A DNA stretch of 64,000 nucleotides from positions 194,209-258,208 of the forward strand of contig CAKOYD010000002.1 of the NCBI GenBank assembly GCA_934130545.1, in the 5' to 3' direction. A program made the position numbers and the translations under genes. Source of the stretch: an uncultured Bacilli bacterium (GTDB taxonomy: Bacteria > Bacillota_I > Bacilli_A > RF39 > UBA660). Within the stretch, counting starts at the first letter, position 1. Each line of letters starts with the position of its first letter. The notes under the pieces are model-generated. The model had not been told where the DNA came from and did no database searches. It saw only the letters and a list, made by a program, of their open reading frames with translations. This document shows positions 16,684-52,088 of this stretch, in pieces.

Positions 16684-17652
16684 TTATTTTAAAGCATCAA
16701 TTAGTTCTTCTTTTTTTAATTTTGAATAACCTTTAATTTCTTTCTTCTTAGCAAGTTCACGAAGTTCGCTTACTGTTAGAATAGTTAAGTCAATCTTTGT
16801 TTCATTATTAACTGCTACTTCTGGCTTTTCAACAACAGTTTCTGTTTTAACTTCTTTTCTTACTTTTTTGTCAAATTTCTTTTCGTTATTCTTTTCACTT
16901 TTGTCATTATTTCTTTCAAAGTTTCTTACTTGTTTTTTAGATTCATCTTCAGTTACATAGTCAACTACTTCTTTTCCAGTAGCTTCGGCGATAGCATTTG
17001 TTAAAGCTCCTAATACTACTTTAATTGATTTAACAGCATCATCATTTCCTGGTATTACATAATCAATATTATCAGGATCACAGTTAGTATCAATTAATCC
17101 AAATACTGGAATACCTAACTTATTAGCTTCTCTAATAGCATTATATTCCTTAGTTGAATCTACAATAATAACTGCTTGTGGTAATTTATCCATATCTCTA
17201 ATACCACATAAGTTCTTATTTAACTTATCATACTCTTTCTTTAAATCAATTACTTCTTTTTTAGGTAATTTTTCAAAAGTTCCGTCTTCTTCCATCTTTT
17301 CGATTTCTGCTAAACGATAAACTCTCTTTCTTATTGTTCTGAAATTAGTTAATGTTCCACCTAACCATCTTTCAGTCATATAATACATACCTGTTCTAGT
17401 TGCTTCTTCAATACAAACATCAGATGCTTGTTTCTTAGTACCTACATATAGTACCTTTCCACCATCTTCTACGATTTTTTTTAAAGCATTGTATGCTCTT
17501 TCAAGTGAATCTTGTGTTTTTTGTAAGTCCATGATATAAATATCATCTCTTGTAGAGTAAATATACTCTTTCATTTTTGGATTCCATCTTTTAGTCTGAT
17601 GACCAAATTGAACTCCACCTTCTAGTAAATAACTCATTGCTACTACTGACAT
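16684..17652 (-). CDS. rpsB: 30S ribosomal protein S2 with a C-terminal extension ending in a Rho_N/SAP-like helix-hairpin-helix
   Basis: S2 core ([22 protein letters not shown]…). Likely start ATG at 17652 with AAGGAGG RBS; the ORF track extends to 17682. About 80 extra C-terminal residues end in [34 protein letters not shown], which resembles the Rho N-terminal domain signature. Confidence 0.9.
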
Positions 17653-17848
17653 ATTTTTTCCTCCTTTTGTTTTTTCTTCCAAATATCTCTTCTCTATATA
17701 CCACTTATTTATAAATAAGCACTAGATATATAAATCAATATTTGTGCTAATTTAAGAAAAGCCATTAATAATATATCATAAAATAGTCAATAATACAAAT
17801 GTTTTTTATTATAAATTAAAAATATTTGTATCTCCTTACCAAAATAGA

Positions 17849-18422: not shown

Positions 18423-20195
18423 TTATTTAACTATATATGGTTCTGTAGCAGTACCTAATCCTCCCCCTGTCACCGTTATCCCTTGTTTAAGTGAAACTAC
18501 AGGGCGCCCACCGAGCGAACCCGTAACGCTGTTTTCGGCGACAATCCCAGAGGAACGCAAATCGATCTCGCCAGCACCCCAGTCGTAGAAGAGAGACGGA
18601 GAAAAGGACCAATTATAAAAACCATTATACAAGTAATATGATGTATTTGTTTGCCATACCACTCCACCTGCAAAAGCCATTTCTTCCGCTGTAATCATTC
18701 CTACTGGATATGTTAACTCGCCATTACCATTATCCGTACTAACTGTAAACTTATCTATTTGTCTTGGACATACTAAACTTAACTTTCTATTTAATAGCCT
18801 TTGAACACTGCCAAAATATAACCACTTATTATAGTTACTGTAATCTTTATTCCAACCACTAGTACTTAAATTATAATATGTTCTATCATTACAAAATCCA
18901 GTATCTTCTAATTGTAATGTATAACTAGTCATATTAGTTTTATACCAAGTATCTATCTTTACTTTAGCATTTGATTCTTTAACATTAATGTCACCTTCAA
19001 ACATTTCATTTAGTAAATCAACTGGTTTCTTACCATTCGTTAGAGTGAAATAGTAAGTATATTTGTCTTCACTATAAATAATGTGTATATAGTATACACT
19101 TTGACAACTAGTACCTGAACTAAAGCAAGTATAATGATATTTGTCAGTATAGTTACTATATTCAGTACCCCAGCTACTTGGATCAGTTAATGTTTTAGTA
19201 TCTTTTAGTGTATATTTCCCTGTACTTGCATCGTACGTAGCATCATTTCCAAACACTATTGAACCTGTTAATGTTGTTATATCTTTGCTTGATGCAGTAT
19301 ATACCGTATTATACATGTATCCAACATATGCCGGAGAATTATAATTTGTATTAAATTGAATATTACCTATCGTAGTAGCACTACCTGTATTATTACATTG
19401 TCCATTAGAAGGTACACCATTATATATTAACTTAACCCCACCTGTTTCTGTTGTTCTTATTATTTTCCAGCAGAAGTTGGCAAATAATACATTATTATCT
19501 ACTGCTCCACGATAGTAATATACTGGTATATTACCTTCGGTATTAGTTGTCATATAGATGCCATTAGTACTACTAGCATCAGATGTTTTACTAAAATCAA
19601 TAGTTGTAGTAGTATCGGCATTATTTTTTATATAATCATATAATGGCTCTCCACCAATTAATACAGTACCATCACTATCTTCTACATCTTTAACTGCTAT
19701 ACCACTAGAAGTTAAATTAGCATTAAACTTCTTACCTAATATATCAGAAGAAGATACAGTATCAGGTATCCATAATTTAATAGTAAATGTTCTAGAAGAA
19801 CCTGGATTTAATATAACATCTCTAATTATTATATTACTATCACTAGACAATATAGCAGGGTTTTCCCCATCCATAGATACTTTAATGAAACTACTATCTA
19901 AAGTACTATTACTCATAGGTTCTAATATAACATTAAACTTATATGCTAAAGTACCTACATTGGTAATAGTAATAGTAGTTTCATTAGAATTCATACCATC
20001 AGTATCACTCATAGGATAAACATTATTTAAGTTTATACTTACATTACTATAACTTAATTTTAATGTACCAGTACTATAATTTTGTACAATAGAACTTACT
20101 TCACTAGTAAATAATGCATAAGTTTCTTTACCAATAGATACAAATAACATTAAAACAATTAATATTAACAATAATTTTTTATTTCTACTATTCAT
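18423..20195 (-). CDS. large secreted protein with a SipW-cognate (TasA/camelysin-type) signal peptide; 3' end compositionally atypical
   Basis: 590 aa. N-terminus MNSRNKKLLLILIVLMLFVSIGKETYALFTSEVSS matches the SipW-cognate signal class (…GTYAYFSDTE…). S/T/N/Y-rich body. The last ~60 codons are GC-rich with atypical codons. Confidence 0.7.
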   Translation of the reverse strand: MNSRNKKLLLILIVLMLFVSIGKETYALFTSEVSSIVQNYSTGTLKLSYSNVSINLNNVYPMSDTDGMNSNETTITITNVGTLAYKFNVILEPMSNSTLDSSFIKVSMDGENPAILSSDSNIIIRDVILNPGSSRTFTIKLWIPDTVSSSDILGKKFNANLTSSGIAVKDVEDSDGTVLIGGEPLYDYIKNNADTTTTIDFSKTSDASSTNGIYMTTNTEGNIPVYYYRGAVDNNVLFANFCWKIIRTTETGGVKLIYNGVPSNGQCNNTGSATTIGNIQFNTNYNSPAYVGYMYNTVYTASSKDITTLTGSIVFGNDATYDASTGKYTLKDTKTLTDPSSWGTEYSNYTDKYHYTCFSSGTSCQSVYYIHIIYSEDKYTYYFTLTNGKKPVDLLNEMFEGDINVKESNAKVKIDTWYKTNMTSYTLQLEDTGFCNDRTYYNLSTSGWNKDYSNYNKWLYFGSVQRLLNRKLSLVCPRQIDKFTVSTDNGNGELTYPVGMITAEEMAFAGGVVWQTNTSYYLYNGFYNWSFSPSLFYDWGAGEIDLRSSGIVAENSVTGSLGGRPVVSLKQGITVTGGGLGTATEPYIVK

Positions 20196-20223
20196 AAACG
20201 TACAATCCTTTCCACAATAAAAA

Positions 20224-20270
20224 TACTATGACAAAAAGAGTCTAATTACTTAAACTCTACTGTCATAGTA
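20224..20270 (-). terminator. terminator-like or attenuator hairpin ~25 nt upstream of the 590-aa gene start
   Basis: On the minus strand an inner hairpin GAGUUUAAG-UAA-UUAGACUC is nested in a perfect 10-bp outer stem (UACUAUGACA…UGUCAUAGUA) and followed by UUUUUAUUG. The inner hairpin plus U-run is conserved upstream of the 36611..40201 gene. Confidence 0.55.
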
Positions 20271-20295
20271 TTTATTATTTAAACAAACAACTGTA

Positions 20296-20355
20296 TTATT
20301 TAGCCCCACCCCCAAGTAAACTTGGAGTTAACTTATATATTACCATTTTATTCAT
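20296..20355 (-). CDS. putative leader uORF (MNKMVIYKLTPSLLGGGAK) spanning the G tract
   Basis: ATG lies 9 nt after an AAAGGAGUU Shine-Dalgarno-like element. The RBS-to-ATG spacing is conserved in the paralogous leader at 40244..40348. It may be non-coding because the RBS is predicted to pair in a conserved stem. Confidence 0.3.
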   Translation of the reverse strand: MNKMVIYKLTPSLLGGGAK

Positions 20356-20441
20356 AATTTTTAACTCCTTTCTAGCAAACATTTGTTTACTGTACTATTT
20401 ACTTGAGAAGAATTCTTGTTTGCTCTTCTTATTTTAAATTA

Positions 20442-20470
20442 ATTATAAACTAAATTATCTCTATATGCAA
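20442..20470 (-). promoter_or_regulatory. sigma-A promoter driving leader A and the 590-aa gene
   Basis: Minus strand TTGCAT-17 nt-TATAAT, about 80 nt upstream of the uORF. Immediately downstream of the XRE regulator gene. Confidence 0.6.
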
Positions 20471-20498: not shown

Positions 20499-20771
20499 TT
20501 ATTCTTCATCATTAAAAAACTCTTTAATATCTATATCTAGTGCCTCAGCAATTCTACCTAATACTGAAATAGTAAAATGTTTATTTCTCTTATCATTTTC
20601 TATATCACTAATATATTCTCTTGATAAATCAGTCATATCTGCTAAATCTTGTTGCGTTAAATTATTACTAGCGCGATACTTTTTAATATTCTTTCTAATA
20701 ATATTATAATAGTAATTATCATTATTAATATATTTCTTAGGCTTAATAGTTTTATACAACATATACTTCAC
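20499..20771 (-). CDS. XRE-family helix-turn-helix transcriptional regulator
   Basis: 90 aa. LTQQDLADMTDLSREYISDIENDKRNKHFTISVLGRIAEALDI is a Cro/C1-type HTH. The true start may be internal. Confidence 0.7.
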   Translation of the reverse strand: MKYMLYKTIKPKKYINNDNYYYNIIRKNIKKYRASNNLTQQDLADMTDLSREYISDIENDKRNKHFTISVLGRIAEALDIDIKEFFNDEE

Positions 20772-36610: not shown

Positions 36611-39600
36611 CTATTGCCAACAATAACTATCGTTTAATTTAGTATATCCACTAGCACATGAATATGTTGTTACTGTTGTTCCTGATGTATATATTTTACA
36701 TGACTTATTTACAAGGTATCCACTTGAGCAAGAATAAGCATATGAACAATTATTACTACTAAGAGTATATCCAGATGGGCAATTTGCACCACCAGAATTA
36801 GCACAACTATATTGTGTTACCCTTCCAGTACTAGTTCGCTTACAATAAAAACTTCCTGTAAGATGACTATTAGCACTAGTATAATAATAACATCCGCCAC
36901 TATCTTGTAGATTACTACCACAATCTTCATAAGAACTTGCTGTTGTATTCGCTACTGTACCACTACATGTATTAGTATTACCAGCTCCATCTTTTACATA
37001 GAAAGTATATGTCTTTGCTCCTGTTATTGTACCAGTACTACTATTACTGCCACTATATGATGAACTCCAACCATAGTATGCTAGACCACTTCCTCCTTCA
37101 TCAGAATATGTGGCAGTTATTGTTGTACCACTAGCACTTAATGTACATTTTGGTCTAATTGTATCGATAATAATCCAGTGAGCATATAACGTTGTATCTG
37201 ATGTTTTATCCCAATCTCTTACACTTTGACCACTACTATTATAATATTGTGTTCCACCACTTGCTGAGTCATAATAACCGGCAAATGTATATCCAGTCAT
37301 AGTAGGTAAAGTTATATCAGGATAACTACCTTGTTTAGTACCATGAACAATAGTAGTTGAGTCAGTACCTCCTGTACCACCATTCTTATTGAATGTTATA
37401 GTATATACTTTAGCTGTCCAATAAGCATATAGTGTATGATCACTAGCATTGGATACTATAGTATCACTTGTTACTCTAGTACCTGTACCATTTTCTCCCG
37501 TATACCAACCGCCAAATGAATAACCTGCTTTTATTGGTGTTGGCATATCACCATATTTTTGACTTTGTTGAACAGTTCTGTTTATACTAGTCAGAATTAT
37601 TCTAGCTGCTCCATTACCAGTCTTAACATAATTACTAACAGAATTCCCGGAAATATTAGTTGTAGAATATGTTTTAGTACTTGTTGCATCAGAAGTTGCG
37701 CAATTATAACAATACATATATTTATCAGTAAGCAGTGAATTGCCAATATAACCAGAACCACCTCCGCCAGGAGCAATGTGTCCACTTCGTGATCCACCAT
37801 AAAAACCACCGCCTCCGCCAGTAGTAGCCCAATCACTTCCACCGCCTTGGCCGAATGACCCAGTAATAACACCACTATTTACTTCGCTTGCTCTATTACA
37901 ATCACTTGTTATTTTACCTCCGGCGGTCTGAGTTCCGCCAAGGCCTACACACCATTGATTATCTTCAACACTGGATTCATCTCCAGAATTACCTATGTAT
38001 CCACCACCGGAACCACCACGTAATCCATATGTTCCAACATTTTCACCATAGTAAGATCCACCGCCTCCGCCAGAAACAATTAATATATTTGATAGGCTAG
38101 ATGATAATGATGATAGTAATCCAGACTTTGTAGCAATATGAGTCGCTCCACCGCCGGAACCAAATGATCTATTGCAGCATGCCTGGCCTCCTGTTGAACC
38201 ACCACCATTATATCCACCCACAATATTCTCTAACGTTCCAGACGAGGTTCTGCTTCCCTGGCCTCCAACATTAACATATAAAATATCACCTGAGTTTAAT
38301 GTAGTCGTTCCTTGTGAATATCCCCCATAACCACCAACAGTACCATCTATTGTTGTTCCTCCTTGAGCACCCCATGTTTCAAGTTTATATGTTCCAGTAT
38401 ATGGGACTGTGTAAATATTTTCTTTGGCCTCTGTAAATGTTGAAATAACATTATAACTTCCACCGGCAACATCAAAAGTTACATTTACAGTTTTATTCCA
38501 TTTAGCATACAAAGTATGATTATTGGCAATAGTTATTACTGTATTCTCATCTACTTTAGTACCTGCCCCATTCTCACCAGTATACCAACCACCGAAAGTA
38601 TATCCTTCTCTAGTTGGGGTTGGTAATTCACCATATTTGTCTTTATAAGTTACATTATAGTTGGTGTCACTTATTAATGTAACTCTAGCTGCTCCATCAC
38701 CGCTTTTAGCGTAATCAGTAGTTGGTGTCGCTGAAGCATTGGTAGTTGTATATGTCTTAGTATCGGTAGCATCAGATGTTGTACAATTATAGCAATACAT
38801 ATATTTATTAGCAAGTAATGAATTGCCTATGTAACTGGATCCACCGCCACCGCCACCATTCCTAGCAGAACCGCCAGCTCCACCGTATAGACCACCGCCT
38901 CCACCGCCAGCTCCGTGCTCAAAGCTTGCTTCGTATCCACCTTGGCCTCCTAATCCAAATTGTCCAACTGTACCAGTAACACTTCCAGAGCCAAGGGTTC
39001 CTCCGGAGGTTTGTGTACCGCCACCGCCACCGCCTTGGAATGAACTACTATTGTGTCCACCGGTGTTACCCTGTATCCCACCGCCTGAACCACCTATCTC
39101 ATTTGCATTAAATACTCCAGTACCACCGCCGCCGCCTGAAACTATCAGGATACTTGATAGAGAGGATGATAAAGACGACAATAAACCTGTCTTTGTTGCA
39201 ATATGGGTAGCACCACCCCCAGTTCCTGCACTGTAATTTGCATTTCCACCACCATTATATCCACCAGTAGTAAATGTACTTTCAGCATTAGAACTTACGC
39301 CTTGACCTCCGACATTAAGATATAAAATATCTCCTTTTTTTAATGAAACAACTCCAGTAGAGTAACTACCATAACCAATTTGAGTTGTAGAATATTGGCC
39401 GCCTTGGGCTCCCCAAGTTTCTAATTTATAATCACCAGTATATGTTACTTTGTAAGTATACTCTTGCGGTTGGGTGTATGTAACAGCAAAATTACCTCCT
39501 GCTAAGTCTAAACTAACTGTTATATTTTTAGGTTCAAACACTACTTCACAATTAACATTACTTGTTATATTAGATATAGTTAAGATATTATTAGATACTG

Positions 39601-40201
39601 TTCCTTCACATGTTGTTGATTTATATTGATAACCATCATTAGGTGCTAAAGTATATTTAACTGTACCATTCTTAGTAGATAATTTAATATTAGGTTTTAC
39701 TTTACCGTAAGTATTATTATTAGATTTAACTATTGCTTTATAGTATACATCTTTATTTATGCCAGTACTATTGCTAGGTAATTCTAATATTTCTTTTTCA
39801 AAACCTACTATATCTTTAATACTTACTGTTGTATCAGTACTACTATTATTTTGAATAAATACTTTAACTAGATTAGTATTCTTACTATTAAGTACTCCAC
39901 TAGTATCTGTATCACTTATATTAATTATACTAATATTAGAGTTTACTCCTTCTAAATAAAGTAGATATGACATATTAAATTCATTAGGATTACTTATTTT
40001 AATATCTACTATTTTACTATCATAACTAGGTATTAATATATCTCTATTAGTTCTATCACCTAAAACTATATTAAATAGATAATCTGCTTTACTACTATTA
40101 CCTTCGGTAATGGTAGTATCTATTGCAAATGTTCCTATTAGAGAAATAACTCCTATTATAAATATCAAAAATAATCCTATATATATTGTCCTTTTTTTCA
40201 T
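36611..40201 (-). CDS. giant secreted glycine-rich surface protein: signal peptide, duplicated Gly-rich module with Flg_new (Listeria-Bacteroides) repeats, and a Cys-rich C-terminal module shared with the pilin-like protein
   Basis: ~1196 aa from ATG 40201 (AGGTGG RBS; the ORF track uses GTG at 40213). N-terminal signal MKKRTIYIGLFLIFIIGVISLIG. Two ~345-aa tandem copies (YKLETWGAQGG…GGATHIATK.GLLSSLSSSLS.ILIVSGGGGG…YMYCYNC…GY.FGGWYTGENG.GT.V…HTLYA.W). A third Flg_new repeat. C-terminal ~200 aa Cys-rich tail. Confidence 0.8.
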   Translation of the reverse strand: MKKRTIYIGLFLIFIIGVISLIGTFAIDTTITEGNSSKADYLFNIVLGDRTNRDILIPSYDSKIVDIKISNPNEFNMSYLLYLEGVNSNISIINISDTDTSGVLNSKNTNLVKVFIQNNSSTDTTVSIKDIVGFEKEILELPSNSTGINKDVYYKAIVKSNNNTYGKVKPNIKLSTKNGTVKYTLAPNDGYQYKSTTCEGTVSNNILTISNITSNVNCEVVFEPKNITVSLDLAGGNFAVTYTQPQEYTYKVTYTGDYKLETWGAQGGQYSTTQIGYGSYSTGVVSLKKGDILYLNVGGQGVSSNAESTFTTGGYNGGGNANYSAGTGGGATHIATKTGLLSSLSSSLSSILIVSGGGGGTGVFNANEIGGSGGGIQGNTGGHNSSSFQGGGGGGTQTSGGTLGSGSVTGTVGQFGLGGQGGYEASFEHGAGGGGGGLYGGAGGSARNGGGGGGSSYIGNSLLANKYMYCYNCTTSDATDTKTYTTTNASATPTTDYAKSGDGAARVTLISDTNYNVTYKDKYGELPTPTREGYTFGGWYTGENGAGTKVDENTVITIANNHTLYAKWNKTVNVTFDVAGGSYNVISTFTEAKENIYTVPYTGTYKLETWGAQGGTTIDGTVGGYGGYSQGTTTLNSGDILYVNVGGQGSRTSSGTLENIVGGYNGGGSTGGQACCNRSFGSGGGATHIATKSGLLSSLSSSLSNILIVSGGGGGSYYGENVGTYGLRGGSGGGYIGNSGDESSVEDNQWCVGLGGTQTAGGKITSDCNRASEVNSGVITGSFGQGGGSDWATTGGGGGFYGGSRSGHIAPGGGGSGYIGNSLLTDKYMYCYNCATSDATSTKTYSTTNISGNSVSNYVKTGNGAARIILTSINRTVQQSQKYGDMPTPIKAGYSFGGWYTGENGTGTRVTSDTIVSNASDHTLYAYWTAKVYTITFNKNGGTGGTDSTTIVHGTKQGSYPDITLPTMTGYTFAGYYDSASGGTQYYNSSGQSVRDWDKTSDTTLYAHWIIIDTIRPKCTLSASGTTITATYSDEGGSGLAYYGWSSSYSGSNSSTGTITGAKTYTFYVKDGAGNTNTCSGTVANTTASSYEDCGSNLQDSGGCYYYTSANSHLTGSFYCKRTSTGRVTQYSCANSGGANCPSGYTLSSNNCSYAYSCSSGYLVNKSCKIYTSGTTVTTYSCASGYTKLNDSYCWQ
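37430..39500 (-). repeat. internal tandem duplication (~1.05-1.08 kb unit, two copies) inside the giant gene
   Basis: Nucleotide-level similarity at ~1082-bp offset (for example 37688-37770 versus 38770-38850). The protein shows two co-linear ~345-aa modules. Boundaries are approximate. Confidence 0.7.
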
Positions 40202-40225
40202 AATTAACACCACCTATAGACATGA

Positions 40226-40252
40226 CAAAAAGAGTCTAACTTCTTAAACTCC
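40226..40252 (-). terminator. terminator-like or attenuator hairpin ~25 nt upstream of the giant gene start
   Basis: Minus strand GGAGUUUAAG-AAG-UUAGACUC followed by UUUUUG. Conserved with the hairpin at 20238..20257. The uORF stop codon UAA lies inside the 5' arm. Confidence 0.5.
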
Positions 40253-40348
40253 TTCTTTATGCTTATAATAAAAACAAACAAATGTATTACTTATACCCCC
40301 CCCCCATGTAAACATAGAGTTAACGCTTTTTCTTAATATTTTATACAT
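40244..40348 (-). CDS. putative leader uORF (MYKILRKSVNSMFTWGGGISNTFVCFYYKHKEGV) spanning a G10 tract
   Basis: ATG lies 9 nt after AAAGGAGUU, the same geometry as the uORF at 20296..20355. The stop codon sits inside the terminator-like hairpin. May be non-coding. Confidence 0.3.
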   Translation of the reverse strand: MYKILRKSVNSMFTWGGGISNTFVCFYYKHKEGV

Positions 40349-40422
40349 AATCATTAACTCCTTTCTACATAGGAAGAAATACCTTGTTTGTTTATCTCCT
40401 ATCTTCTACTAAATTATAGCAC

Positions 40423-40451
40423 ACATCATTTTATTTGTCTATTAGTTAAAA
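40423..40451 (-). promoter_or_regulatory. sigma-A promoter with extended -10 driving leader B and the giant gene
   Basis: Minus strand TAGACA-17 nt-TGcTATAAT. Confidence 0.55.
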
Positions 40452-44893: not shown

Positions 44894-47380
44894 TTACCTA
44901 TTTAATATTTTATAAACAATATTAGCCATCTTTTTATTAAACATAATCAAATATATTCCTTTAGCATTAGTATAAAAATACTTATTTAATCTATATTTAG
45001 GAAAATTACTTTTGACATTTAAAATTGCCGTATCAACAGCAGCATCAAATTCATCTTTATTAAAATGAGCAGCTTGTTTAATAAAAGTAGCATATAAATA
45101 CCTTACATAACAATACTCAAGTTCCTTTTTGTAATTATTATATATACCTCTATCTTTATAAAATACTATTAAGTCATTAAAATTATCAACATAATTATAT
45201 AATCTTTTATCAAAAGTTTTAGTAATCGAACCACTTCTTTGTACATACTGATTAAGGGGTTCTTTTACCACACCAATATTATTAATATAAGGAAATATTT
45301 TATATAAAAAGTCAACATCTTCAAACCATACACCTTTTTTAAACTCAATCTTCTTACTAAATAATTCTTTCTTATATATCTTATTCCAAACACAAGGATA
45401 CATATTTACATAAGTCTTTTTAATATTTGTAGTATCCATTTCAATTTTAGAACTAACTCTTTTTATGCTTCCATCTTCATAAACATAATTTAAATCACAT
45501 ACAACAACATCAAAATTACCTGATATAGCTTTATTATACATTTTTTCATACATATCTATAGAAACGAAATCATCACCATCAACAAATGCAATATAATCTC
45601 CTTTGGCTTCCTTAATTCCAAAATTTCTAGCATCACTAACACCACCATTTTTCTTTATGTAGCTATGGATAGTACTATATTTTTTAGCATACTTATCTAT
45701 AATACTTTGACTATTATCTGGGCTTCCATCATTAACTACTATTATTTCTATATCTTTAAGAGTTTGATTAACTAAACTATCTAAACACTTATCAATATAC
45801 TTTTCTACATTATATACCGGTACGATAACACTTACCTTAGGATTTTTTGATTTCTTTACCATATTTACCTCACTAACATTTTCTTTACCTATTACATATT
45901 TTAATTTATCATGTCTTACAAAAGAAAGCAAGTACCCGCTTATAAAAGCAAGTGGTATTGTAACTATTAATTCATCTAAAACATGTCCACTAAAATAAGA
46001 TATTCCTAAACAAACATATACTGATATGACAAGCATAGTTGTCTTTAATCTTAATCTTCTCTTTAGTAGCATATATATTCCTGAATAAGTTGCAATTACA
46101 ATATAAGGCCCAAATAGTAATAATATACCAATTATTCCGATAGTATAATAATGTACTGTAAAATCACTTTCTATATATATTTCTGCTATTCTATATCTAG
46201 AATAACCTTCCCCAAAATACTTATCATACTTATTATTATTTAATGAATATATTCTATTAGTAATAAGTTTTTCTAACTTACGATTTCCCCCTCTTTCACT
46301 ATAAGGAAGTTTCATAACATCTATCCAAAAATCTATATCTTGTTCATAAGGATATAAATCATAAATATATGTCTTAGGAATAGAATAATATTCAAAATAC
46401 TCTTTAATAAATTCTTCTTTTTCTTCTACAGTACGCAAATTATGTAATGATTCATTAACAGTATCTTTATTTTCCATACCATTTTCTATTTCTTCATAAT
46501 CAGTAACTGTATATCTTAAAATTAATGGTGAATTAAGAGTTATAAATCCTAATACCATAAAACATGATATATATAATAATATCTTTTTTAAAGTTATTTC
46601 GACTTTATTTTTATCAATAAGTGCAAAAAATATCCATGCTATAAACATAACTACACTAACAATAGCCCATCCATATACTGCTACTCTCGTTCCTATCATT
46701 ATCATAGCCAAACATAAAGTAAGTGAAGATATAAAAGCTTTCTTATTAGAAAATCTAATAGCATAATATATGTTTATTGGTAATATTAATATTGTTAAAG
46801 CACTTATCTGATTAGCCATATAAAAGTACCCTTTTGAAGCTAGTTGTTCAAATGTAAAATCTTTATTTAAAAACCAGTCAAATATATTACCCGCTATAAA
46901 ATGAGGCTCTCCATAAGAAACTAAAGATATCTTAAATATATTAGTAATTATTATCTCTAAAGAAATAATTAATGATAATACCACAATACTCTCTCTAAAT
47001 GCCTCTTCTGTTATCTTAGCTTTATAAACTATATATATAAGCATTAAAGGTAATAACAATCTTATATAATAAAAAGCTTCTGTTATATATGAAAAATTCA
47101 TAACGGAATTTATTCCAATATTAAAATTAAGACTATTAATAACATGGCCTATCAAATAGACAAATAATATAGCCAAATACCCCGCTATAAACCAGTGCTT
47201 CTTATCATTCTTCGTATTTATTAATGTTATTATAAAAAATACAAATATAAATATAATTCTAATTATTGTTGAAGGAGAAAATTTAAATATCCTAGTAACT
47301 TTTTCACTATATAATAAATAGAAATCTAAAAATGGTTGTATTATTAAAAATATAAATAGTGCTTTATCTATTTTCTTCAT
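44894..47380 (-). CDS. fusion of a polytopic Wzy/O-antigen-ligase-like membrane domain (~480 aa) with a C-terminal GT2 glycosyltransferase
   Basis: 828 aa with about 10-12 TM helices. The C-terminal part has KVSVIVPVYNVEKYIDKCLDSLVNQT…VVNDGSPDNS…DGDDFV GT-A motifs paralogous to the two other GT2 genes in the locus. Confidence 0.65.
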   Translation of the reverse strand: MKKIDKALFIFLIIQPFLDFYLLYSEKVTRIFKFSPSTIIRIIFIFVFFIITLINTKNDKKHWFIAGYLAILFVYLIGHVINSLNFNIGINSVMNFSYITEAFYYIRLLLPLMLIYIVYKAKITEEAFRESIVVLSLIISLEIIITNIFKISLVSYGEPHFIAGNIFDWFLNKDFTFEQLASKGYFYMANQISALTILILPINIYYAIRFSNKKAFISSLTLCLAMIMIGTRVAVYGWAIVSVVMFIAWIFFALIDKNKVEITLKKILLYISCFMVLGFITLNSPLILRYTVTDYEEIENGMENKDTVNESLHNLRTVEEKEEFIKEYFEYYSIPKTYIYDLYPYEQDIDFWIDVMKLPYSERGGNRKLEKLITNRIYSLNNNKYDKYFGEGYSRYRIAEIYIESDFTVHYYTIGIIGILLLFGPYIVIATYSGIYMLLKRRLRLKTTMLVISVYVCLGISYFSGHVLDELIVTIPLAFISGYLLSFVRHDKLKYVIGKENVSEVNMVKKSKNPKVSVIVPVYNVEKYIDKCLDSLVNQTLKDIEIIVVNDGSPDNSQSIIDKYAKKYSTIHSYIKKNGGVSDARNFGIKEAKGDYIAFVDGDDFVSIDMYEKMYNKAISGNFDVVVCDLNYVYEDGSIKRVSSKIEMDTTNIKKTYVNMYPCVWNKIYKKELFSKKIEFKKGVWFEDVDFLYKIFPYINNIGVVKEPLNQYVQRSGSITKTFDKRLYNYVDNFNDLIVFYKDRGIYNNYKKELEYCYVRYLYATFIKQAAHFNKDEFDAAVDTAILNVKSNFPKYRLNKYFYTNAKGIYLIMFNKKMANIVYKILNR

Positions 47381-47388
47381 ATATCCTC

Positions 47389-48585
47389 CTATCTAAATAA
47401 TTTATATAATTGTTTTAATATCTTATCATTTTCTTTATCATAATCATATTTTATTAAATTATCTTTAAACTTATCAATAAGACTTCTATCAGTAATAACT
47501 TTCTTTAATCCTTCATATAATCCTTCATTACTATTATCTACTACTAGGCCATTATAACCACTCTTAATAAGTTCTCCTGTTGCTGAATTACTAGTAGCTA
47601 ATACTGGTACACCAAGAGTCATCGCTTCTACTATTACAATACCAAATGGCTCAAATATTGAAGGTAATATAAACATATCATTTCCATTAATGCATTCATA
47701 AGGATTATCAGTGTATCCCATAAGTTCAAAATAGTTTTCCATCTTATTATCCATAATCTTTTTCATTAATGTATCCATTAATGGACCATCACCATATATT
47801 TTAAAACTAACATCCTTAAGTAAGTTATCATTTCTAAGACATATTACAGCATCTAGTAATCGATCGTATCCTTTCATCGGATGTAATCTTCCTACTGAAA
47901 CAAAATTTAGTTTCTTACTATTTTTCTTCTTACCTCTAGCCATCTTTTTAATCTTATTAATATCAACATAATTACCAATAACCATTGTAGTATCTTCTAA
48001 ATGATATATCTTATTAAAGTCATCCATTACACCTTTAGATACTGCTACTATCTTATTAAACTTAGGTAATACCTCTTTAAATAACCTATCATATTTAGCA
48101 TTAGGATTAGCAATAGTATAATTATAATGAAGCCAATGAATCTTATTCTTGCAATTACCGAAACCTACAAATAAAGCCGTAAATCCATCTTTAAAAGCAA
48201 CTTCTGTATCATACTCTTTTTTTAATATTTTCTTTCTTTCTTTTATAATTCTATTTTTAATTAAACCAGTCTTCATCTCTAAAACTAATCGAACTTTCTT
48301 AAATATTAAAGAAAGATTCTTACTTCTTAATACTTCTCCTATTGTTAAATCAACTGCATCAAAATACTTTGTACCATATATAATATTAACATTCTTAGGT
48401 AAATTATTAAGTCTTGTTCCATTATTATGTAGAACCAAAACATCAATATTAAACTTACTATAATCAAATTTATTTAACATATCTTCAAGAAGAATAGATA
48501 CTCCTCCCATTCTTCTCTCATCTACTACAAATAATATATCTTTCATTATTACTTCGACTCCTTTAAAACTATCTTTAATAACCAA
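47389..48585 (-). CDS. GT4-family glycosyltransferase
   Basis: 398 aa. C-terminal GT4 signature (…EPFGIVIVEAMTLGVPVLAT…). Confidence 0.75.
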   Translation of the reverse strand: MVIKDSFKGVEVIMKDILFVVDERRMGGVSILLEDMLNKFDYSKFNIDVLVLHNNGTRLNNLPKNVNIIYGTKYFDAVDLTIGEVLRSKNLSLIFKKVRLVLEMKTGLIKNRIIKERKKILKKEYDTEVAFKDGFTALFVGFGNCKNKIHWLHYNYTIANPNAKYDRLFKEVLPKFNKIVAVSKGVMDDFNKIYHLEDTTMVIGNYVDINKIKKMARGKKKNSKKLNFVSVGRLHPMKGYDRLLDAVICLRNDNLLKDVSFKIYGDGPLMDTLMKKIMDNKMENYFELMGYTDNPYECINGNDMFILPSIFEPFGIVIVEAMTLGVPVLATSNSATGELIKSGYNGLVVDNSNEGLYEGLKKVITDRSLIDKFKDNLIKYDYDKENDKILKQLYKLFR

Positions 48586-49505
48586 TAATATTTCTTATAA
48601 AATAAAATACACACCACTCTATACTTAATATTAGTATTTTTAAAGTATCTATTCTTCTTCCAATTAGGGAACTCTTCTTTAATAATCTTAACAATTCTTT
48701 CTAACTCATTATACTTCTTAAACTTAAAAAATCTAAGTGAAGCCGCATGCAGTAAATGTTCAATATATATATACTCAATCTCATCTTTATATAAATCATA
48801 CTTATTATTACTAATAAATCTATTTCTTAATGTATCTAATGAATCAAATATATCTTCAAAAGACTTCTTATACTTTACTTGGTTCATAATAGAGCCACTT
48901 CTAATAACATAATAATATAAATAGTCATCAATATAATCTATCTTTTTAGCATATATTCCAAGTGCCGGAATAACAGCAATATCTTCATAAAAATGCTTCT
49001 CTAAAAAACGTAAATTATATTTTATAAATAATTCTTTCTTTATTAATTGCCAACAAGGACCACAACAATTTAATACATAATTTTTATATATATTATCACT
49101 TATAATATTAAATGTTTTAACTTCGGTAGTTTTATCATCTACTACTCTATAATAATTGGAAACAACAATATCACTACGTTTTTTACTAACGGTATTAACT
49201 AATTTTTCTACCATTTTCATATCAACATAATCATCACTATCAACAAACATTATATATTCTCCGGTAGCTTTATCAATGCCATAATTACGAGCAATAGCTG
49301 AACCACCATTCTCTTTTACATAACTCTTAATAATCTTAGAATACTTCTTCTTATATTCATCTATAATACTTTGACTATTATCTTTTGTTCCATCATTAAC
49401 TACTATAATCTCTATATTTTGATAAGTTTGATTAACTAAACTATCTAAACATTTTCTTAAATATTCTTCAACGTTATAAACAGGCACTATTATACTAACT
49501 TTCAT
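48549..49505 (-). CDS. GT2-family glycosyltransferase
   Basis: 318 aa. KVSIIVPVYNVEEYLRKCLDSLVNQTYQNIEIIVVNDGTKDNS…DSDDYV. Confidence 0.8.
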   Translation of the reverse strand: MKVSIIVPVYNVEEYLRKCLDSLVNQTYQNIEIIVVNDGTKDNSQSIIDEYKKKYSKIIKSYVKENGGSAIARNYGIDKATGEYIMFVDSDDYVDMKMVEKLVNTVSKKRSDIVVSNYYRVVDDKTTEVKTFNIISDNIYKNYVLNCCGPCWQLIKKELFIKYNLRFLEKHFYEDIAVIPALGIYAKKIDYIDDYLYYYVIRSGSIMNQVKYKKSFEDIFDSLDTLRNRFISNNKYDLYKDEIEYIYIEHLLHAASLRFFKFKKYNELERIVKIIKEEFPNWKKNRYFKNTNIKYRVVCILFYKKYYWLLKIVLKESK

Positions 49506-49515
49506 ATATCCTCCA

Positions 49516-50964
49516 CTACTTCTTTAATCTAAATGTAACTAAAAACTTATCTATCAAAAAATGTTCTATATCATCATGCATAATAAATAATATTCCCAAA
49601 TATATAAGCATACCAACTAATACTTGAACTATATTAGTAAGAATACCCGGGCCCATTACTAATCCAACACCAAGCGCACCAGCTCCCATTAATATTCCAA
49701 CACCCAAGTACGTAAATATTTTCTTAATAATACCATCAAAATTAAATGTCTTCTTAACAAAATGATATTGAATAAGTAAAATAACTAACTCAGTAATTGA
49801 AGATGCAATAGCCGCTCCATATGCTCCAAAATGTCCAATAAGTAAAGCATTTAAAACTATATTAACAACACAACCGCTTGTTACTGATATTGTGTATTTC
49901 TTCGATTCATCATTAACAATTAAATATTGCATTCCAAAGACATTAGTTAAAGATATAAATACTATCGTCGGTGTTAAACAACAAATAATATAAGCAACCT
50001 TCCCAAAATCTTTTGGTAAAAACCATGGAATAAAGAATGGTGATACTACAGAGAATCCTATGGCAATAGGAATAGATAAAAATAATGCAATCTTAAAAGT
50101 ATTATTAGTTATTAATTTAACTGTATCATCATTTTTTTCACTTTTCTTTCTCACAATGTTTGGTAGCATAACTGTTCCTATTGTTGTAATAATAAACATT
50201 AGCATATTTACAAGTTTATGAGCTTGCGTATAAAAACCAACTTCACTTATATCATCATATAATAAACCAATCATTGTCTGATCAAAAACACTATAAATAC
50301 TAGAAGATATCTGTGGAATAAAAAGAACAAAATTCTCTTTAAAATGTGGAACAATATCTTTAAATTTAGAAATCTTAAAATCTATTATTTTATTAATACC
50401 AACCCATATCATAAGTGAACCTATAACATTCATAATAATTATAAATGTCATATATAAATATAAATCATTCTCATTATGTACTAAAAGTAATATTCCACTT
50501 ACCATTAATAGTTTAACAATAAAACCTCTTATTGTTGTCTTTTTAAAATTCTCTAATCCTATATAAAACCAAGTTATTTCAAACATCGATGATAAAAGCA
50601 TTCCTCCCTGTAAAAGAAATACCATATGATATTTAAAATCAAAAGTTAAGAATACAAAATAATATATTATCAAAGATATTAATGTACATAAAAATTGTAA
50701 TGAAAATATCTCCGAAAACTTCTTTGATAGTTTCTCTCTATCATTTGAAACCTTAGCTATTTCTTTACTACCATACAAACTTATTCCCATTGTTCCAAAT
50801 AATATAAACCAATATACTATTGAATAAGTATAATTAAACTTTCCTAAATTATCCGCCCCTAAAGTACGTGAAAGATAAGGAGCCGTTATAATAGGAGTTA
50901 AAAAAGTTAATATTTGATATGCTACATTATATATATAATTAGCAGCTACACTACTTTTTTTCAT
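49516..50964 (-). CDS. wzx: Wzx-type oligosaccharide flippase (MOP superfamily polysaccharide biosynthesis protein)
   Basis: 482 aa with about 12-14 TM helices. Located within the polysaccharide locus. Confidence 0.7.
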   Translation of the reverse strand: MKKSSVAANYIYNVAYQILTFLTPIITAPYLSRTLGADNLGKFNYTYSIVYWFILFGTMGISLYGSKEIAKVSNDREKLSKKFSEIFSLQFLCTLISLIIYYFVFLTFDFKYHMVFLLQGGMLLSSMFEITWFYIGLENFKKTTIRGFIVKLLMVSGILLLVHNENDLYLYMTFIIIMNVIGSLMIWVGINKIIDFKISKFKDIVPHFKENFVLFIPQISSSIYSVFDQTMIGLLYDDISEVGFYTQAHKLVNMLMFIITTIGTVMLPNIVRKKSEKNDDTVKLITNNTFKIALFLSIPIAIGFSVVSPFFIPWFLPKDFGKVAYIICCLTPTIVFISLTNVFGMQYLIVNDESKKYTISVTSGCVVNIVLNALLIGHFGAYGAAIASSITELVILLIQYHFVKKTFNFDGIIKKIFTYLGVGILMGAGALGVGLVMGPGILTNIVQVLVGMLIYLGILFIMHDDIEHFLIDKFLVTFRLKK

Positions 50965-52085
50965 AATTCACCTTCTATTACTTGATATAATTTATTCATT
51001 GATTCTTCGTTATATTTTTTAGGATTAAACTTCTTTTCTATCTTAAAACCATTATCTAAAAACTCTTTCATTCCATCATATATAGCTTCATCATTATTAA
51101 CAACAACAATCCCATATTTATTATCAATAAGTTCCTTAGCATCTGATACATCAGTAGTAATAAGAGGTACTCCTAATGTCATAGCCTCCCCAAAAGTTGT
51201 GGGAAATCCCTCAAAAGCACTACTCATTACAAAAGCATTAGCATTCTTTATATATGGAAAAGGATTAGCTTTCTTACCATAAAAAACAATATAATCATCT
51301 AACTTCTTTTCTTTAACCATATCTAAAAATAGTTTATGATCAGCACCATCACCAATCATTACCATCTTAAACTTATATCCATCATTTTTTAACTTCTCAC
51401 AAGCATTAATTATCCTTGATAATTTCTTATCAAACTCTGTATGTCTACTAACATTAATAAAAGTAATATCCTTAGTATCATACATATCATCTACTTTAAT
51501 CTTACTATTATTAATTATCCTATCATAATCTATAAAATTATGACATAATACTACTTTATCTTTATCTTCCGGATACAGACCCAAATAAGCTTCCATTGCT
51601 TTAGTAGAAATAAATATATTTCTCTTAAACTTTCTAAACTTACAACGCTTCAAGAAAATATCTACTTTCTCTTCGGCACTCATGTTTCCTTTAACTTGAT
51701 CGCTATTCTCCATAAATTTAATGATATTAGTATGCATATATGCCACGCTATTTTTCGAAGCCAAAAGAGCCACCTTTGAACTAACTACATATCCCGTTCC
51801 ATAACTAATTGCACAATCAAACTTTCGATAATACTTTAACTTAGTATAGATAATCTTAAACATATTAATAGCTTTTCTAAGTAAAGTAAACTTCATTCTA
51901 GATAAACCATAATCTTCAATATGAACTTCTTTATTAACATTAGAAAGTAGTTCCCCCTTCTTATCTTGTAATAAAATAGTAACATCATATTTACTATAAT
52001 CAAAATTATTAACAAGATTTACTAAACAACTCTCTACTCCCCCAATACTTAGATCATATGTTGTAAATAATATCTTTTTCTTCAT
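50961..52085 (-). CDS. GT4-family glycosyltransferase
   Basis: 374 aa. EGFPTTFGEAMTLGVPLITTD is the GT4 E-x7-E region. Confidence 0.75.
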   Translation of the reverse strand: MKKKILFTTYDLSIGGVESCLVNLVNNFDYSKYDVTILLQDKKGELLSNVNKEVHIEDYGLSRMKFTLLRKAINMFKIIYTKLKYYRKFDCAISYGTGYVVSSKVALLASKNSVAYMHTNIIKFMENSDQVKGNMSAEEKVDIFLKRCKFRKFKRNIFISTKAMEAYLGLYPEDKDKVVLCHNFIDYDRIINNSKIKVDDMYDTKDITFINVSRHTEFDKKLSRIINACEKLKNDGYKFKMVMIGDGADHKLFLDMVKEKKLDDYIVFYGKKANPFPYIKNANAFVMSSAFEGFPTTFGEAMTLGVPLITTDVSDAKELIDNKYGIVVVNNDEAIYDGMKEFLDNGFKIEKKFNPKKYNEESMNKLYQVIEGEL

Positions 52086-52088
52086 ATA

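Follow-up and report, generated by a model that had tools for sequence, protein, structure and literature searches.

Leaders carrying a G tract in an upstream reading frame ahead of a terminator-like hairpin: probable phase-variable attenuators of secreted-protein genes in uncultured gut Bacilli

We analysed a 64,000-nt stretch of DNA (the window) from an uncultured Bacilli bacterium (RF39; UBA660; assembly GCA_934130545.1, contig CAKOYD010000002.1, positions 194,209 to 258,208), in which two homologous ~220-nt leaders, copy A at 20216-20437 and copy B at 40218-40404, both on the minus strand, precede genes for secreted proteins. An earlier note, made from the letters of this DNA, had described the two leaders and had offered three readings for them: a ligand-sensing riboswitch, attenuation through a leader peptide, or a slipped-strand phase switch in a G tract. 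Both leaders have the same parts in the same order, namely a promoter, a strong Shine-Dalgarno (SD) sequence with an upstream open reading frame (uORF), the G tract, a UGUUUGUUU block, a terminator hairpin and the ribosome-binding site (RBS) of the main gene. The parts of copy A are as follows.

20442-20470, minus strand: promoter, with -35 TTGCAT at 20465-20470, a 17-nt spacer and -10 TATAAT at 20442-20447
20397-20423, minus strand: 5′ hairpin strands, from minimum-free-energy (MFE) and centroid folds and a 25-copy consensus structure
20416-20423, minus strand: hairpin strand GCAAACAA, with partner UUGUUUG
20397-20412, minus strand: pyrimidine-rich hairpin strand UUCUUCUCAAGUAAAU, with partner UUUACUUGGGGG
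20375-20390, minus strand: optional small hairpin GUAAACAAAUGUUUGC, from alignments
20361-20374, minus strand: ribosome-binding block of the uORF, UAGAAAGGAGUUAA, with AGAAAGG.G invariant in 25 copies
20296-20355, minus strand: uORF of 19 codons, translated as MNKMVIYKLTPSLLGGGAK and a stop
20304-20313, minus strand: G tract GGGGGTGGGG, interrupted by T, as read from the sequence
20281-20298, minus strand: block UAAUACAGUUGUUUGUUU, the 3′ strand of the basal helix, which carries the stops of the non-invading frames
20216-20273, minus strand: intrinsic terminator, with outer stem UACUAUGACA/UGUCAUAGUA and inner stem GAGUUUAA/UUAGACUC, then UUUUUAUU
20206-20213, minus strand: main RBS GGAAAGGA, as read from the sequence
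18423-20213, minus strand: main RBS and regulated gene (ORF 18423-20195), for a 590-amino-acid (aa) secreted protein of no known family

The corresponding parts of copy B are these.

40413-40441, minus strand: promoter TAGACA-17-(TG)TATAAT, a scanner match at 11/12 with an extended -10
40364-40393, minus strand: 5′ strands, from folds, AAACAAACAA at 40384-40393 and AUUUCUUCCUAUGUAGA at 40364-40380
40244-40367, minus strand: SD block (40354-40367) and uORF of 34 codons (40244-40348)
40296-40305, minus strand: uninterrupted G10 tract, the sole run of at least seven G or C in the 64-kb window
40272-40289, minus strand: block UAAUACAUUUGUUUGUUU, as read from the sequence
40222-40258, minus strand: terminator-like hairpin AAGAAGGAGUUUAAG-AAG-UUAGACUCUUUUU, then GUCAU, from a local fold and pattern match
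40210-40215, minus strand: main RBS AGGUGG, as read from the sequence
36611-40215, minus strand: main RBS and regulated gene (ORF 36611-40201), for a 1196-aa secreted protein

The four ordered blocks that the earlier note had seen in common were found in their places on the minus strand of both leaders, and for the long blocks the number of chance matches expected in the window is zero. The SD element TAGAAAGGAGTTAA lies at 20361-20374 and 40354-40367, separated by N5 from the ATG, so that the gap from GGAG to ATG is 9 nt in both copies. The G-tract block, GTTAACTC(C/T)A(A/T)GTTTAC(T/A)TGGGGG, forms the hairpin CUCCAAG-UUUA-CUUGGGGG in copy A and CUCUAUG-UUUA-CAUGGGGG in copy B; the A:U to U:A exchange between the two is a real compensatory change, and it is accompanied by a third, because AAG has become AUG in the upstream strand of copy B, in step with CUU to CAU in the strand of the G tract. 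The block TAATACA(G/T)TTGTTTGTTT is indeed present at 20281-20298 and 40272-40289, but it is not single-stranded as supposed, because it is paired with the 5′ AAACAAAC strand. Similarly, the hairpin GAGTTTAAG-N3-TTAGACTCTTTTTGTCAT was located at 20228-20257 and 40222-40251, but its end is 30-44 nt from the start codon rather than ~25 nt. The 10-bp outer stem of copy A and its promoter (TTGCAT-17-TATAAT) are as the note had them. A simple promoter scanner missed that promoter, of which TTGCAT fits the -35 consensus at just 3/6 positions; the layout CTTGCA-17-TATAAT is kept in ~25 related copies, and transcription of copy A would start near 20435. The homology reaches further 5′ than had been noted, into the pyrimidine-rich strand (20397-20412 in copy A, 40364-40380 in copy B) and the AAACAAAC strand. 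A profile made from 25 related copies matched exactly two places in the window, with E values of 2e-45 (copy A) and 1e-39 (copy B), and no further leader fragments were found there.

The genes behind the two leaders are of different kinds. For the 590-aa protein of copy A, labelled SipW-type in the note, we found no match to a Pfam, NCBIfam or PDB profile, and the hidden Markov models of Pfam and NCBIfam also gave no match for six homologues; no model of TasA/camelysin or of a SipW-cognate signal peptide thus bore out the label. An AlphaFold (AF2) model from 24 sequences was too poor to use (pLDDT 52); Foldseek with that poor model gave no match at E<=0.001, and generic Ig/pilin-like sandwiches at E>0.001. 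The 1196-aa protein of copy B contains ALK_LTK_GRD glycine-rich domains and Flg_new repeats. The description of the products as extremely Gly-rich holds just for copy B, with 17.2 % Gly versus 8.1 % for copy A. Copy A is flanked by efp, a PBP and rpsB-tsf and copy B by RNase J and mraZ-mraW; because these flanking genes are housekeeping genes, we regard the two copies as isolated insertions of one cassette before secreted-protein genes.

The inner-hairpin pattern served as query in a scan for related leaders, in which each GTDB species was represented by one genome. The scan returned 54 stretches, of which 25 were full-length leader copies and the rest unrelated terminators. The 25 copies were confined to metagenome-assembled genomes (MAGs) of four uncultured gut 'Bacilli', with 17 in CAKPNA01 (Hadza), 6 in UBA6414 and a single copy in either of CAKPJO01 and CAKPDJ01. 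Scanning metagenomes with the G-tract block contributed just 6 more copies, and others came from ENA contigs encoding homologues of the 590-aa protein, for a total of ~40 distinct cassette copies. The order of parts was the same in every copy: the CTTGCA-17-TATAAT promoter, AAGGUAAGAAAAUAAACAAACAAAGUAUUUCUUCCUAAGUAGAAAGGAG, an AUG with ~13 codons, the G tract and AAAUAAUACAnnUGUUUGUUU in the 5′ part, followed by a 22-bp hairpin AACUACGGUAAAGAGAGUUUAAG-nnn-UUAGACUCUUUUUAUCGUAGUU, UUUUUU, AAGAAAGGG and the start codon. Nearly all copies lie 5′ of genes for paralogous secreted proteins of ~500-610 aa, in which an N-terminal segment is hydrophobic and the motif GGTFAYLTTS...SGNLTMTIDGGG is conserved, and a minority precede genes of the copy B type. 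The N-terminal motif (GGTFAYLTTS...SGNLTM) resembles TasA by eye alone. Three homologues with 60-77 % identity over half of the 590-aa protein (P0002, P0018 and P0012) have a different short upstream region and no cassette; therefore, the leader is not tied to the whole protein family.

Several departures from the common layout were seen among these loci. At the P0089 locus (L067-L076), ~130 nt 5′ of the gene start, the promoter and ~55 nt from the 5′ end of the leader are fused to the main RBS: the leader up to UAGAAAGGA is joined to the RBS spacer of the main gene (AUUUGUACGUUUAUG), which cleanly drops the uORF, the G tract and the terminator, and the fusion is the same in 10 contigs from different samples. 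The deletion apparently arose by recombination between two AGAAAGG ribosome-binding repeats. Because the loss is clean, the regulatory module is detachable. A subset of leaders carries one or two copies of an inserted 20-nt motif, TTGTACATTTTAATT(C/T)GCAA, which adds ~70 nt between the pyrimidine strand and the SD of the uORF (L052:1748-1792, L058:6935-6954, L066, L085-L087, L096-L097 and L102). Among the fetched loci this motif is restricted to leaders, and a search of the window for the insert TTGTACATTTTAATTCGCAA found none; the motif could be the operator of a regulator or a small mobile insert. Finally, two copies look, from their sequences, degenerate: at L025:5055-5277, ATA replaces the ATG of the uORF and the outer terminator stem is missing, and the copy at L064:1196-1451 has 7 G only, carries the AUG change in the upstream strand without a compensating one, and is not followed by a gene that can be recognised as a member of the family.

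The G tract is a rarity in this DNA. The GC content of the window is 27.7 %, and in 180 kb of related loci every run of at least eight G or C (24/24) was a leader tract. Tracts of the paralogues range from 7 to 13 G. Individual loci were compared between contigs assembled from different samples, as consensus assemblies and not reads, and at three of them tract length was the sole difference between otherwise identical sequences:

P0066 locus: 8 G in L085 and L086, 9 G in L087, with 0 mismatches elsewhere in 3076 nt
P0073 locus: 10 G in L096, 9 G in L097 and 12 G in L098, with 0 mismatches elsewhere in 2.6-3.0 kb
P0084 locus: 10 G in L102 and 11 G in L103, with 0 mismatches elsewhere in 2450 nt

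Two other loci were without length variation (11/11/11 G and 9/9 G), and the oriented extracts of L009 and L011 had 13 G versus 11 G. The interrupted tract of copy A was the same in the window and in 4 fetched contigs, beside which 18 further contigs similar to this locus were reported. Across the assemblies examined, pure tracts vary and interrupted tracts are stable. This pattern of lengths is, as far as consensus sequences can tell, the signature of slipped-strand hypermutability, in keeping with the phase-switch reading of the earlier note, and we consider it very likely that the G tract is hypermutable by slipped-strand mispairing. For copy A, we predict that the interruption keeps the tract from slipping and so locks it. 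Some contigs start inside the tract or ~20 nt before it (L095:1, L098:1-30 and L103:1-30), as expected if assemblers break at a length-heterogeneous homopolymer.

A change in tract length changes the frame in which the uORF is read beyond the tract. The tract falls in codons 14-17 of a uORF of about 19-40 codons, whose SD AGAAAGGAG and ATG are kept in nearly all of ~37 copies; L025 has ATA. The first ~8 codons vary freely, and in no copy is there a stop ahead of the tract. Beyond it, three classes were distinguished. In the short class, an immediate stop (AAA UAA or GC UAA) ends the uORF 41-54 nt 5′ of the inner hairpin. In the medium class, the stop is at GUU UAA, 24-28 nt 5′ of the hairpin, although in some copies this frame stops at once. 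In the long class, 17-20 further codons lead to a stop within the hairpin, at +5 (GUU UAA G), +9 (a UGA in the loop) or +13 (GAU UAG). Approximately 35 copies could be classified, ~19 as short, ~7 as medium and ~10 as long. Copy A is of the short class, with its stop 41 nt 5′ of the inner hairpin. The uORF of copy B is of the long, hairpin-invading class: a 1-nt insertion early on together with G10 gives 34 codons, and the UAA at 40244-40246 falls in the 5′ arm of the terminator hairpin. Because of the 1-nt indel, the two uORFs read conserved nucleotides in different frames. The effect of one G is seen directly at the P0066 locus: with 8 G the uORF has 18 codons and stops at -41 (short), and with 9 G it has 35 codons and stops at +9 (long). 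In all 33 distinct spacers (36-59 nt, with 4-7 stop triplets each) at least one frame is open into the hairpin, compared with 38 % of composition-matched shuffles. The copies are not alike in the frame, relative to the hairpin, that is open; therefore, the open frame has been maintained across indels, and the invading frame looks to be under selection, judging from this comparison.

The hairpin that the long frame enters resembles a strong intrinsic terminator. A typical copy has 22 bp and a folding energy of -25 to -27.5 kcal/mol and is followed by U6; copy A has a local fold of -25.4 kcal/mol, and copy B, which has no outer stem, a weaker one of -16.7 kcal/mol. In the outer stem there are two compensatory changes, and many others are compatible with wobble pairing. 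To model the footprint of a ribosome, the leader was folded with 30 nt held unpaired around the stop codon of the uORF. In this model the terminator stays intact in the short and medium classes; in the long class it is destroyed, with six outer pairs and a 36-nt loop remaining. In constrained folds with a ribosome on or past the tract, we found no antiterminator or competing helix, and the terminator was intact.

The remainder of the leader is also structured. Both leaders fold into two large hairpins, a 5′ domain (~-35 kcal/mol) that encloses the start of the uORF and then the terminator, with z-scores against shuffled sequences of -6.9 (copy A) and -5.1 (copy B). In the 5′ domain the C/U-rich strand (strand a; UUCUUCUCAAGUAAAU in copy A, AUUUCUUCCUAUGUAGA in copy B) pairs with UUUAC(U/A)UGGGGG, the AAACAAAC strand pairs with UUGUUUGUUU, and GGAGUUAA pairs with UUAACUC(C/U); in copy A, GGAGUUAA is able to pair with UUAACUCC at 20324-20331. 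The optional small hairpin is found in about half of the family copies, not in copy B, and its variants AAGC/GCUU and GAAC/GUUC retain pairing. Many copies tolerate insertions of 27 nt and ~70 nt within the domain. In the consensus structure of the 25 copies, 98.6 % of cells are paired; 71 cells have one-sided changes that keep the pair, mostly A-U/G-U and G-C/G-U, and 17 cells are broken. Because of the many G.U pairs, the structure is possible only as RNA of this strand. Compensatory changes do exist, but they are few: two-sided changes were found in 3 of 48 pairs, two of them in the outer terminator stem (ACUACGAU/AUCGUAGU versus ACUAUGAC/GUCAUAGU), and because the copies are closely related the covariation support is statistically weak. 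In copy B and at the unrelated locus L100/L101, AAG is changed to AUG in strand a and in the internal strand b, and CUU to CAU in the tract strand c; therefore, pairing is preserved in the long-range a:c helix as well as in the local b:c hairpin. L064 and L085 have the change in strand a alone. The nucleotides of b and c are conserved even though uORF subfamilies read them differently (...LTPSLLGGGG versus ...VNSMFTWGGG), and we conclude that the constraint is on the RNA and not on the peptide.

What the 5′ hairpin does is a matter of speculation: it might limit or time translation of the uORF, or pause RNA polymerase. In one candidate role it would time or limit initiation at the uORF through an SD that is sequestered in the closed form, although in 6 of 14 copies a C.A mismatch interrupts the SD-sequestering helix. 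Another candidate is a pause of RNA polymerase that lets the ribosome catch up; the sequence UUGUUUGUUU presumably fits the TTNTTT motif of NusG-dependent pausing in B. subtilis. Stabilisation of the mRNA is a third candidate role.

Taken together, these observations support a combination of two of the earlier readings, a corrected form of leader-peptide attenuation and the slipped-strand phase switch. We think it probable that the leaders are cis-acting, stochastic (phase-variable) transcription attenuators, in which the length of the G tract sets the frame of the uORF and the frame sets the outcome at the terminator. This reading builds on what can be read from the sequences: the anatomy of the cassette, its multi-copy distribution, the hypervariability of the tract, the three frame classes, the preservation of the invading frame and the stability of the hairpin. 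In the proposed mechanism, a sigma-A-type promoter would initiate a leader of ~220 nt, in which a well-initiated small ORF (SD AGAAAGGAG, AUG 9 nt past GGAG) comes first, the homopolymeric G tract would sit in the 3′ portion of this uORF, and a strong putative intrinsic terminator would follow immediately 5′ of the RBS of the main gene. Slippage during replication would alter the G count and with it the frame in which the uORF exits the tract. In two frames the ribosome would halt 24-54 nt short of the hairpin, the terminator would form, and the gene would be OFF or low. In the third, stop-free frame the ribosome would enter the hairpin and stop at +5 to +13, where it would mask the hairpin arms, so that no terminator forms and transcription reads through into the gene. 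The long frame would accordingly be the ON state, with a ribosome close behind RNA polymerase suppressing termination. On this basis we predict that copy A is held permanently in the low state, with termination, because its tract is interrupted (GGGGGTGGGG) and its uORF short, and that copy B is ON and able to switch, because it has a G10 tract and a uORF stop within the hairpin.

A switch of this anatomy has been worked out experimentally at the pil1 and pil3 loci of Streptococcus gallolyticus, where GCAGA repeats in a leader-peptide gene shift its frame (Danne et al. 2014, PMC3894217). A short peptide that ends 39 bp before a stem-loop terminator gives low expression there; peptides that end within or after the hairpin give high expression through ribosome-induced destabilisation of the terminator, and a ribosome, which covers ~30 nt, blocks formation of the hairpin (PMC3894217). 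Mutants of the start codon, the stop codon and the terminator behaved as the mechanism predicts (PMC3894217). A full-text search of the literature gave no example of leader-peptide phase variation at a terminator besides these two pilus loci. The present leaders share with them a promoter, a repeat-bearing leader ORF, a stem-loop terminator (~-28 kcal/mol) and a downstream gene for a surface structure; in both systems short leader peptides stop ~30-40 nt ahead of the hairpin, more than one locus occurs per genome, and about one third of the states are 'long'. They differ in the repeat (a mononucleotide run of 7-13 G here, 13-23 GCAGA pentamers there), in the number of loci per genome (at least 17 versus 2) and in the products (uncharacterised secreted proteins of ~600 aa versus sortase pili). 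In addition, the tract here is part of a long 5′ hairpin, in which its partner is C/U-rich and the SD is sequestered, and no counterpart of this is described for pil1; the systems have no sequence homology, and ours is known from sequence alone, whereas pil1 is known experimentally. Because the leader anatomy is that of pil1/pil3, we conclude, by analogy, that the leaders are likely a homopolymer version of the S. gallolyticus switch.

Other known systems match in single respects. In the pyrBI operon of E. coli, the leader ORF spans the terminator, and a ribosome that follows closely prevents the hairpin with no need for an antiterminator hairpin. The physical block of a terminator by a ribosome, with no separate antiterminator, is thus common to both, but coupling at pyrBI depends on UTP-dependent polymerase pausing, a metabolic signal, and here on a heritable change of frame. 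Phase variation of the C. difficile surface protein CwpV reportedly acts through a terminator in the 5′ leader of cwpV by recombinase-driven DNA inversion; it is similar in that the switch acts on a leader terminator and not on a promoter or coding sequence, and different in that it uses DNA inversion, with no uORF or repeat tract. A G-repeat in the 5′ untranslated region of H. pylori tlpB is said to be bound by the small RNA RepG, with repeat length setting expression. There, too, a variable G homopolymer in an mRNA leader pairs with a C/U-rich RNA, but the partner is a small RNA in trans, the effect is on translation or stability, and there is no uORF or terminator, whereas the C/U-rich partner here is in cis; the frame model accounts for more of the data than RepG-like pairing does. 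Surface-protein families of Mycoplasma, such as vlp of M. hyorhinis, have promoter poly-A tracts. They resemble the present case in an AT-rich, Bacilli-related host with a small genome and a multigene surface family with near-identical 5′ cassettes that contain a hypermutable homopolymer, by which the surface varies combinatorially, and they differ in that the tract lies between -35 and -10 and acts on initiation, not within a uORF before a terminator.

We weighed five other explanations against the frame switch. The tract could act as an RNA rheostat, by pairing with the C/U-rich 5′ strand or a factor in trans and not through the frame, such that its length tunes the stability or register of the 5′ hairpin and thereby access to the SD of the uORF or the main gene, mRNA stability or polymerase pausing; such a leader would be the RepG/tlpB system of H. 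pylori in a cis form. This is unlikely in our judgement, even though the tract is always within a helix with UUUCUUCC, has two alternative partners (upstream strand a and internal strand b), covaries at one position in all three strands (copy B and L100), and shares with b nucleotides that are conserved despite two uORF subfamilies in different frames: one G more or less in a run of 8-13 nt, paired mostly by G.U wobbles, barely shifts the energy (by ~0.1 kcal/mol per G, with an MFE of -66.0 to -66.2 for 9-11 G), and a rheostat leaves unexplained both the stop-free frame into the terminator in all 33 spacers and the invariant strong SD and AUG. The ligand-sensing riboswitch that the earlier note favoured, for cyclic di-GMP (c-di-GMP) or a new class, governing the terminator, fares far worse, and we hold it to be highly improbable. 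The conservation and strong structure of the leader (z of -6.9 and -5.1), the mutually exclusive pairings around the SD and the terminator downstream speak for it, and c-di-GMP riboswitches are common 5′ of clostridial adhesin genes. However, the window at gathering score gave two tRNAs only and no Rfam 15 family in the leaders, and a permissive scan (E<=10) gave nothing for copy A and sub-threshold chance matches only for copy B, nothing credible among them, with the c-di-GMP-I (RF01051) and c-di-GMP-II (RF01786) classes included. Moreover, the 5′ domain is a single long, irregular hairpin and has no junction of several helices; the N-terminal part of the uORF, which is variable, forms the apical loop; the domain accommodates the 27-nt and ~70-nt insertions; the constrained folds contained no antiterminator; and an aptamer with a hypermutable homopolymer inside it would be without precedent.

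Stalling at the Gly-Gly-Gly(-Gly) codons as a report on the supply of Gly-tRNA is equally hard to credit. The leader ORF and the terminator of that reading stood, with 3-4 consecutive GGG/GGU codons directly 5′ of the terminator and a copy B product with 17 % Gly, but the sensing did not: the Gly codons are the G tract itself, and their number and frame differ among copies and between samples at one locus, most of the regulated proteins, including that of copy A, are not Gly-rich, a ribosome stalled at the tract frees no strand that competes with the terminator, and read-through on starvation would turn ON a Gly-costly gene, which is the wrong sign. An attenuator of the trp/his type was likewise rejected as a candidate, the downstream genes being for secreted proteins of no known family and not for metabolism of the sensed amino acid. 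Another view is that the cassette has no function and hitch-hiked with duplication or gene conversion of the gene family, its tract variation being neutral, or that the variation is an artefact of sequencing or assembly. Copies share 78-89 % mean column identity, and much of their conservation could thus stem from a recent common ancestor, covariation is sparse, and Illumina sequencing is error-prone at long poly-G. Nevertheless, long G runs were found nowhere else in the sequences examined, the invading frame is held open across indels, stem substitutions are mostly wobble-compatible (71 compatible versus 17 breaking cells), the module is cleanly lost at P0089 while promoter and gene remain, and interrupted tracts are stable while pure ones vary, and we regard this view as quite improbable. 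Slippage of RNA polymerase on a run of 10-13 G, alone or beside DNA slippage, would mix uORF frames within each cell and give graded, leaky expression, and would account for expression behind a pure tract in the short frame; long homopolymers do promote slippage or reiterative transcription, although slippage is documented best for runs of A/T. As the DNA-level differences in length between samples were seen directly, heritable variation exists regardless, and we consider polymerase slippage a distinctly unlikely explanation, though it may add leakiness to the tract.

A number of points weigh against the frame-switch attenuator itself. Translation of the uORF, termination at the hairpin and coupling of ribosome and polymerase are all steps that we infer from the sequence. 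In B. subtilis, RNA polymerase largely outpaces the ribosomes, and attenuation by ribosomes is less efficient as a result. That such attenuation is workable in a Firmicute is seen from S. gallolyticus (PMC3894217). Tract lengths were read from the consensus of Illumina metagenome assemblies, in which homopolymer miscalls are possible. Interrupted, 'locked' tracts were found both in the short frame (copy A) and in the long frame (L006), and therefore the assignment of ON and OFF is not readable from them; it is also slightly awkward that the gene behind copy A, a leader locked OFF by this model, is intact and highly conserved. A simple terminator scanner called the hairpin of neither copy A nor copy B, and that of copy B lacks, besides the outer stem, a clean U tract after the full stem. 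The strong conservation of the 5′ hairpin and of the exact inner hairpin sequence is unexplained by the model, and the covariation is thin.

The leaders could also be switches of two layers, in which the heritable frame switch is joined by the conserved 5′ domain, acting as a conformational RNA switch that gates translation of the uORF. Here the mutual complementarity of strands a, b and c, with one position covarying in all three, would provide the alternative conformations, the signal might be a small molecule, temperature, a protein or a C/U-rich RNA in trans, and tract length would determine the frame and the helix register together. We consider this extension, in each of these parts, conceivable but rather doubtful.

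Other features of the window were noted in passing. Directly 5′ of the copy A promoter lies the gene of a 90-aa XRE/HTH_3 regulator (20499-20771, minus strand) with weak similarity to SlrR; the same gene also precedes the orthologous cassette in CAKPNA01 (L007), and its product could be a trans regulator of the family. In the 5′ region of rpsB (ribosomal protein S2; ~17683-17700, compared with L001:4036), contigs that are the same in all else over 3.6 kb differ by one A, with A7 or A8 between the SD (GGAGG) and the ATG; an RBS spacer thus offers a second case of polymorphic homopolymer length. The S2 gene itself (16684-17682, minus strand) has a C-terminal extension that matches Rho_N (PF07498, E 2.4e-8), an unusual fusion. 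A 551-aa protein (55634-57289, minus strand) has a prepilin-type N-terminal methylation motif (PF07963, TIGR02532); the C-terminal part of its gene shares DNA repeats of 73-81 % identity (D3, D4 and D18) with the 3′ end of the copy B gene (36611-37010, minus strand), and the gene, ~58 nt from an upstream radC-like gene, is without a leader cassette. Between the cassette region and this pilin-like gene is a polysaccharide-synthesis cluster (44894-53084, minus strand) that encodes an O-antigen-ligase-like/GT2 fusion, GT1/GT4 and GT2 transferases and a flippase, and in which three GT2 paralogues share 162-nt segments of 77-78 % identity (D1).

If the two-layer switch were true, it would represent a class of cis-regulatory RNA not described before, one that joins stochastic and responsive control of an entire surface-protein repertoire. 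The leaders are also a caution for riboswitch discovery, in that a structured, conserved leader with alternative pairings may not sense a ligand. If the frame switch holds, leader-peptide phase variation at a terminator would gain a homopolymer form beyond the pilus loci of S. gallolyticus, and metagenomes could be read by a simple rule, from tract length to the position of the uORF stop to the ON or OFF state of the gene. The lineage with the cassette is a common yet uncultured group of the human gut, present in the Hadza and other cohorts, and the cassette marks a protein family that is likely under host or phage selection. With at least 17 loci in one AT-rich gut MAG, it would let this lineage vary a large, uncharacterised family of secreted proteins stochastically and in many combinations.

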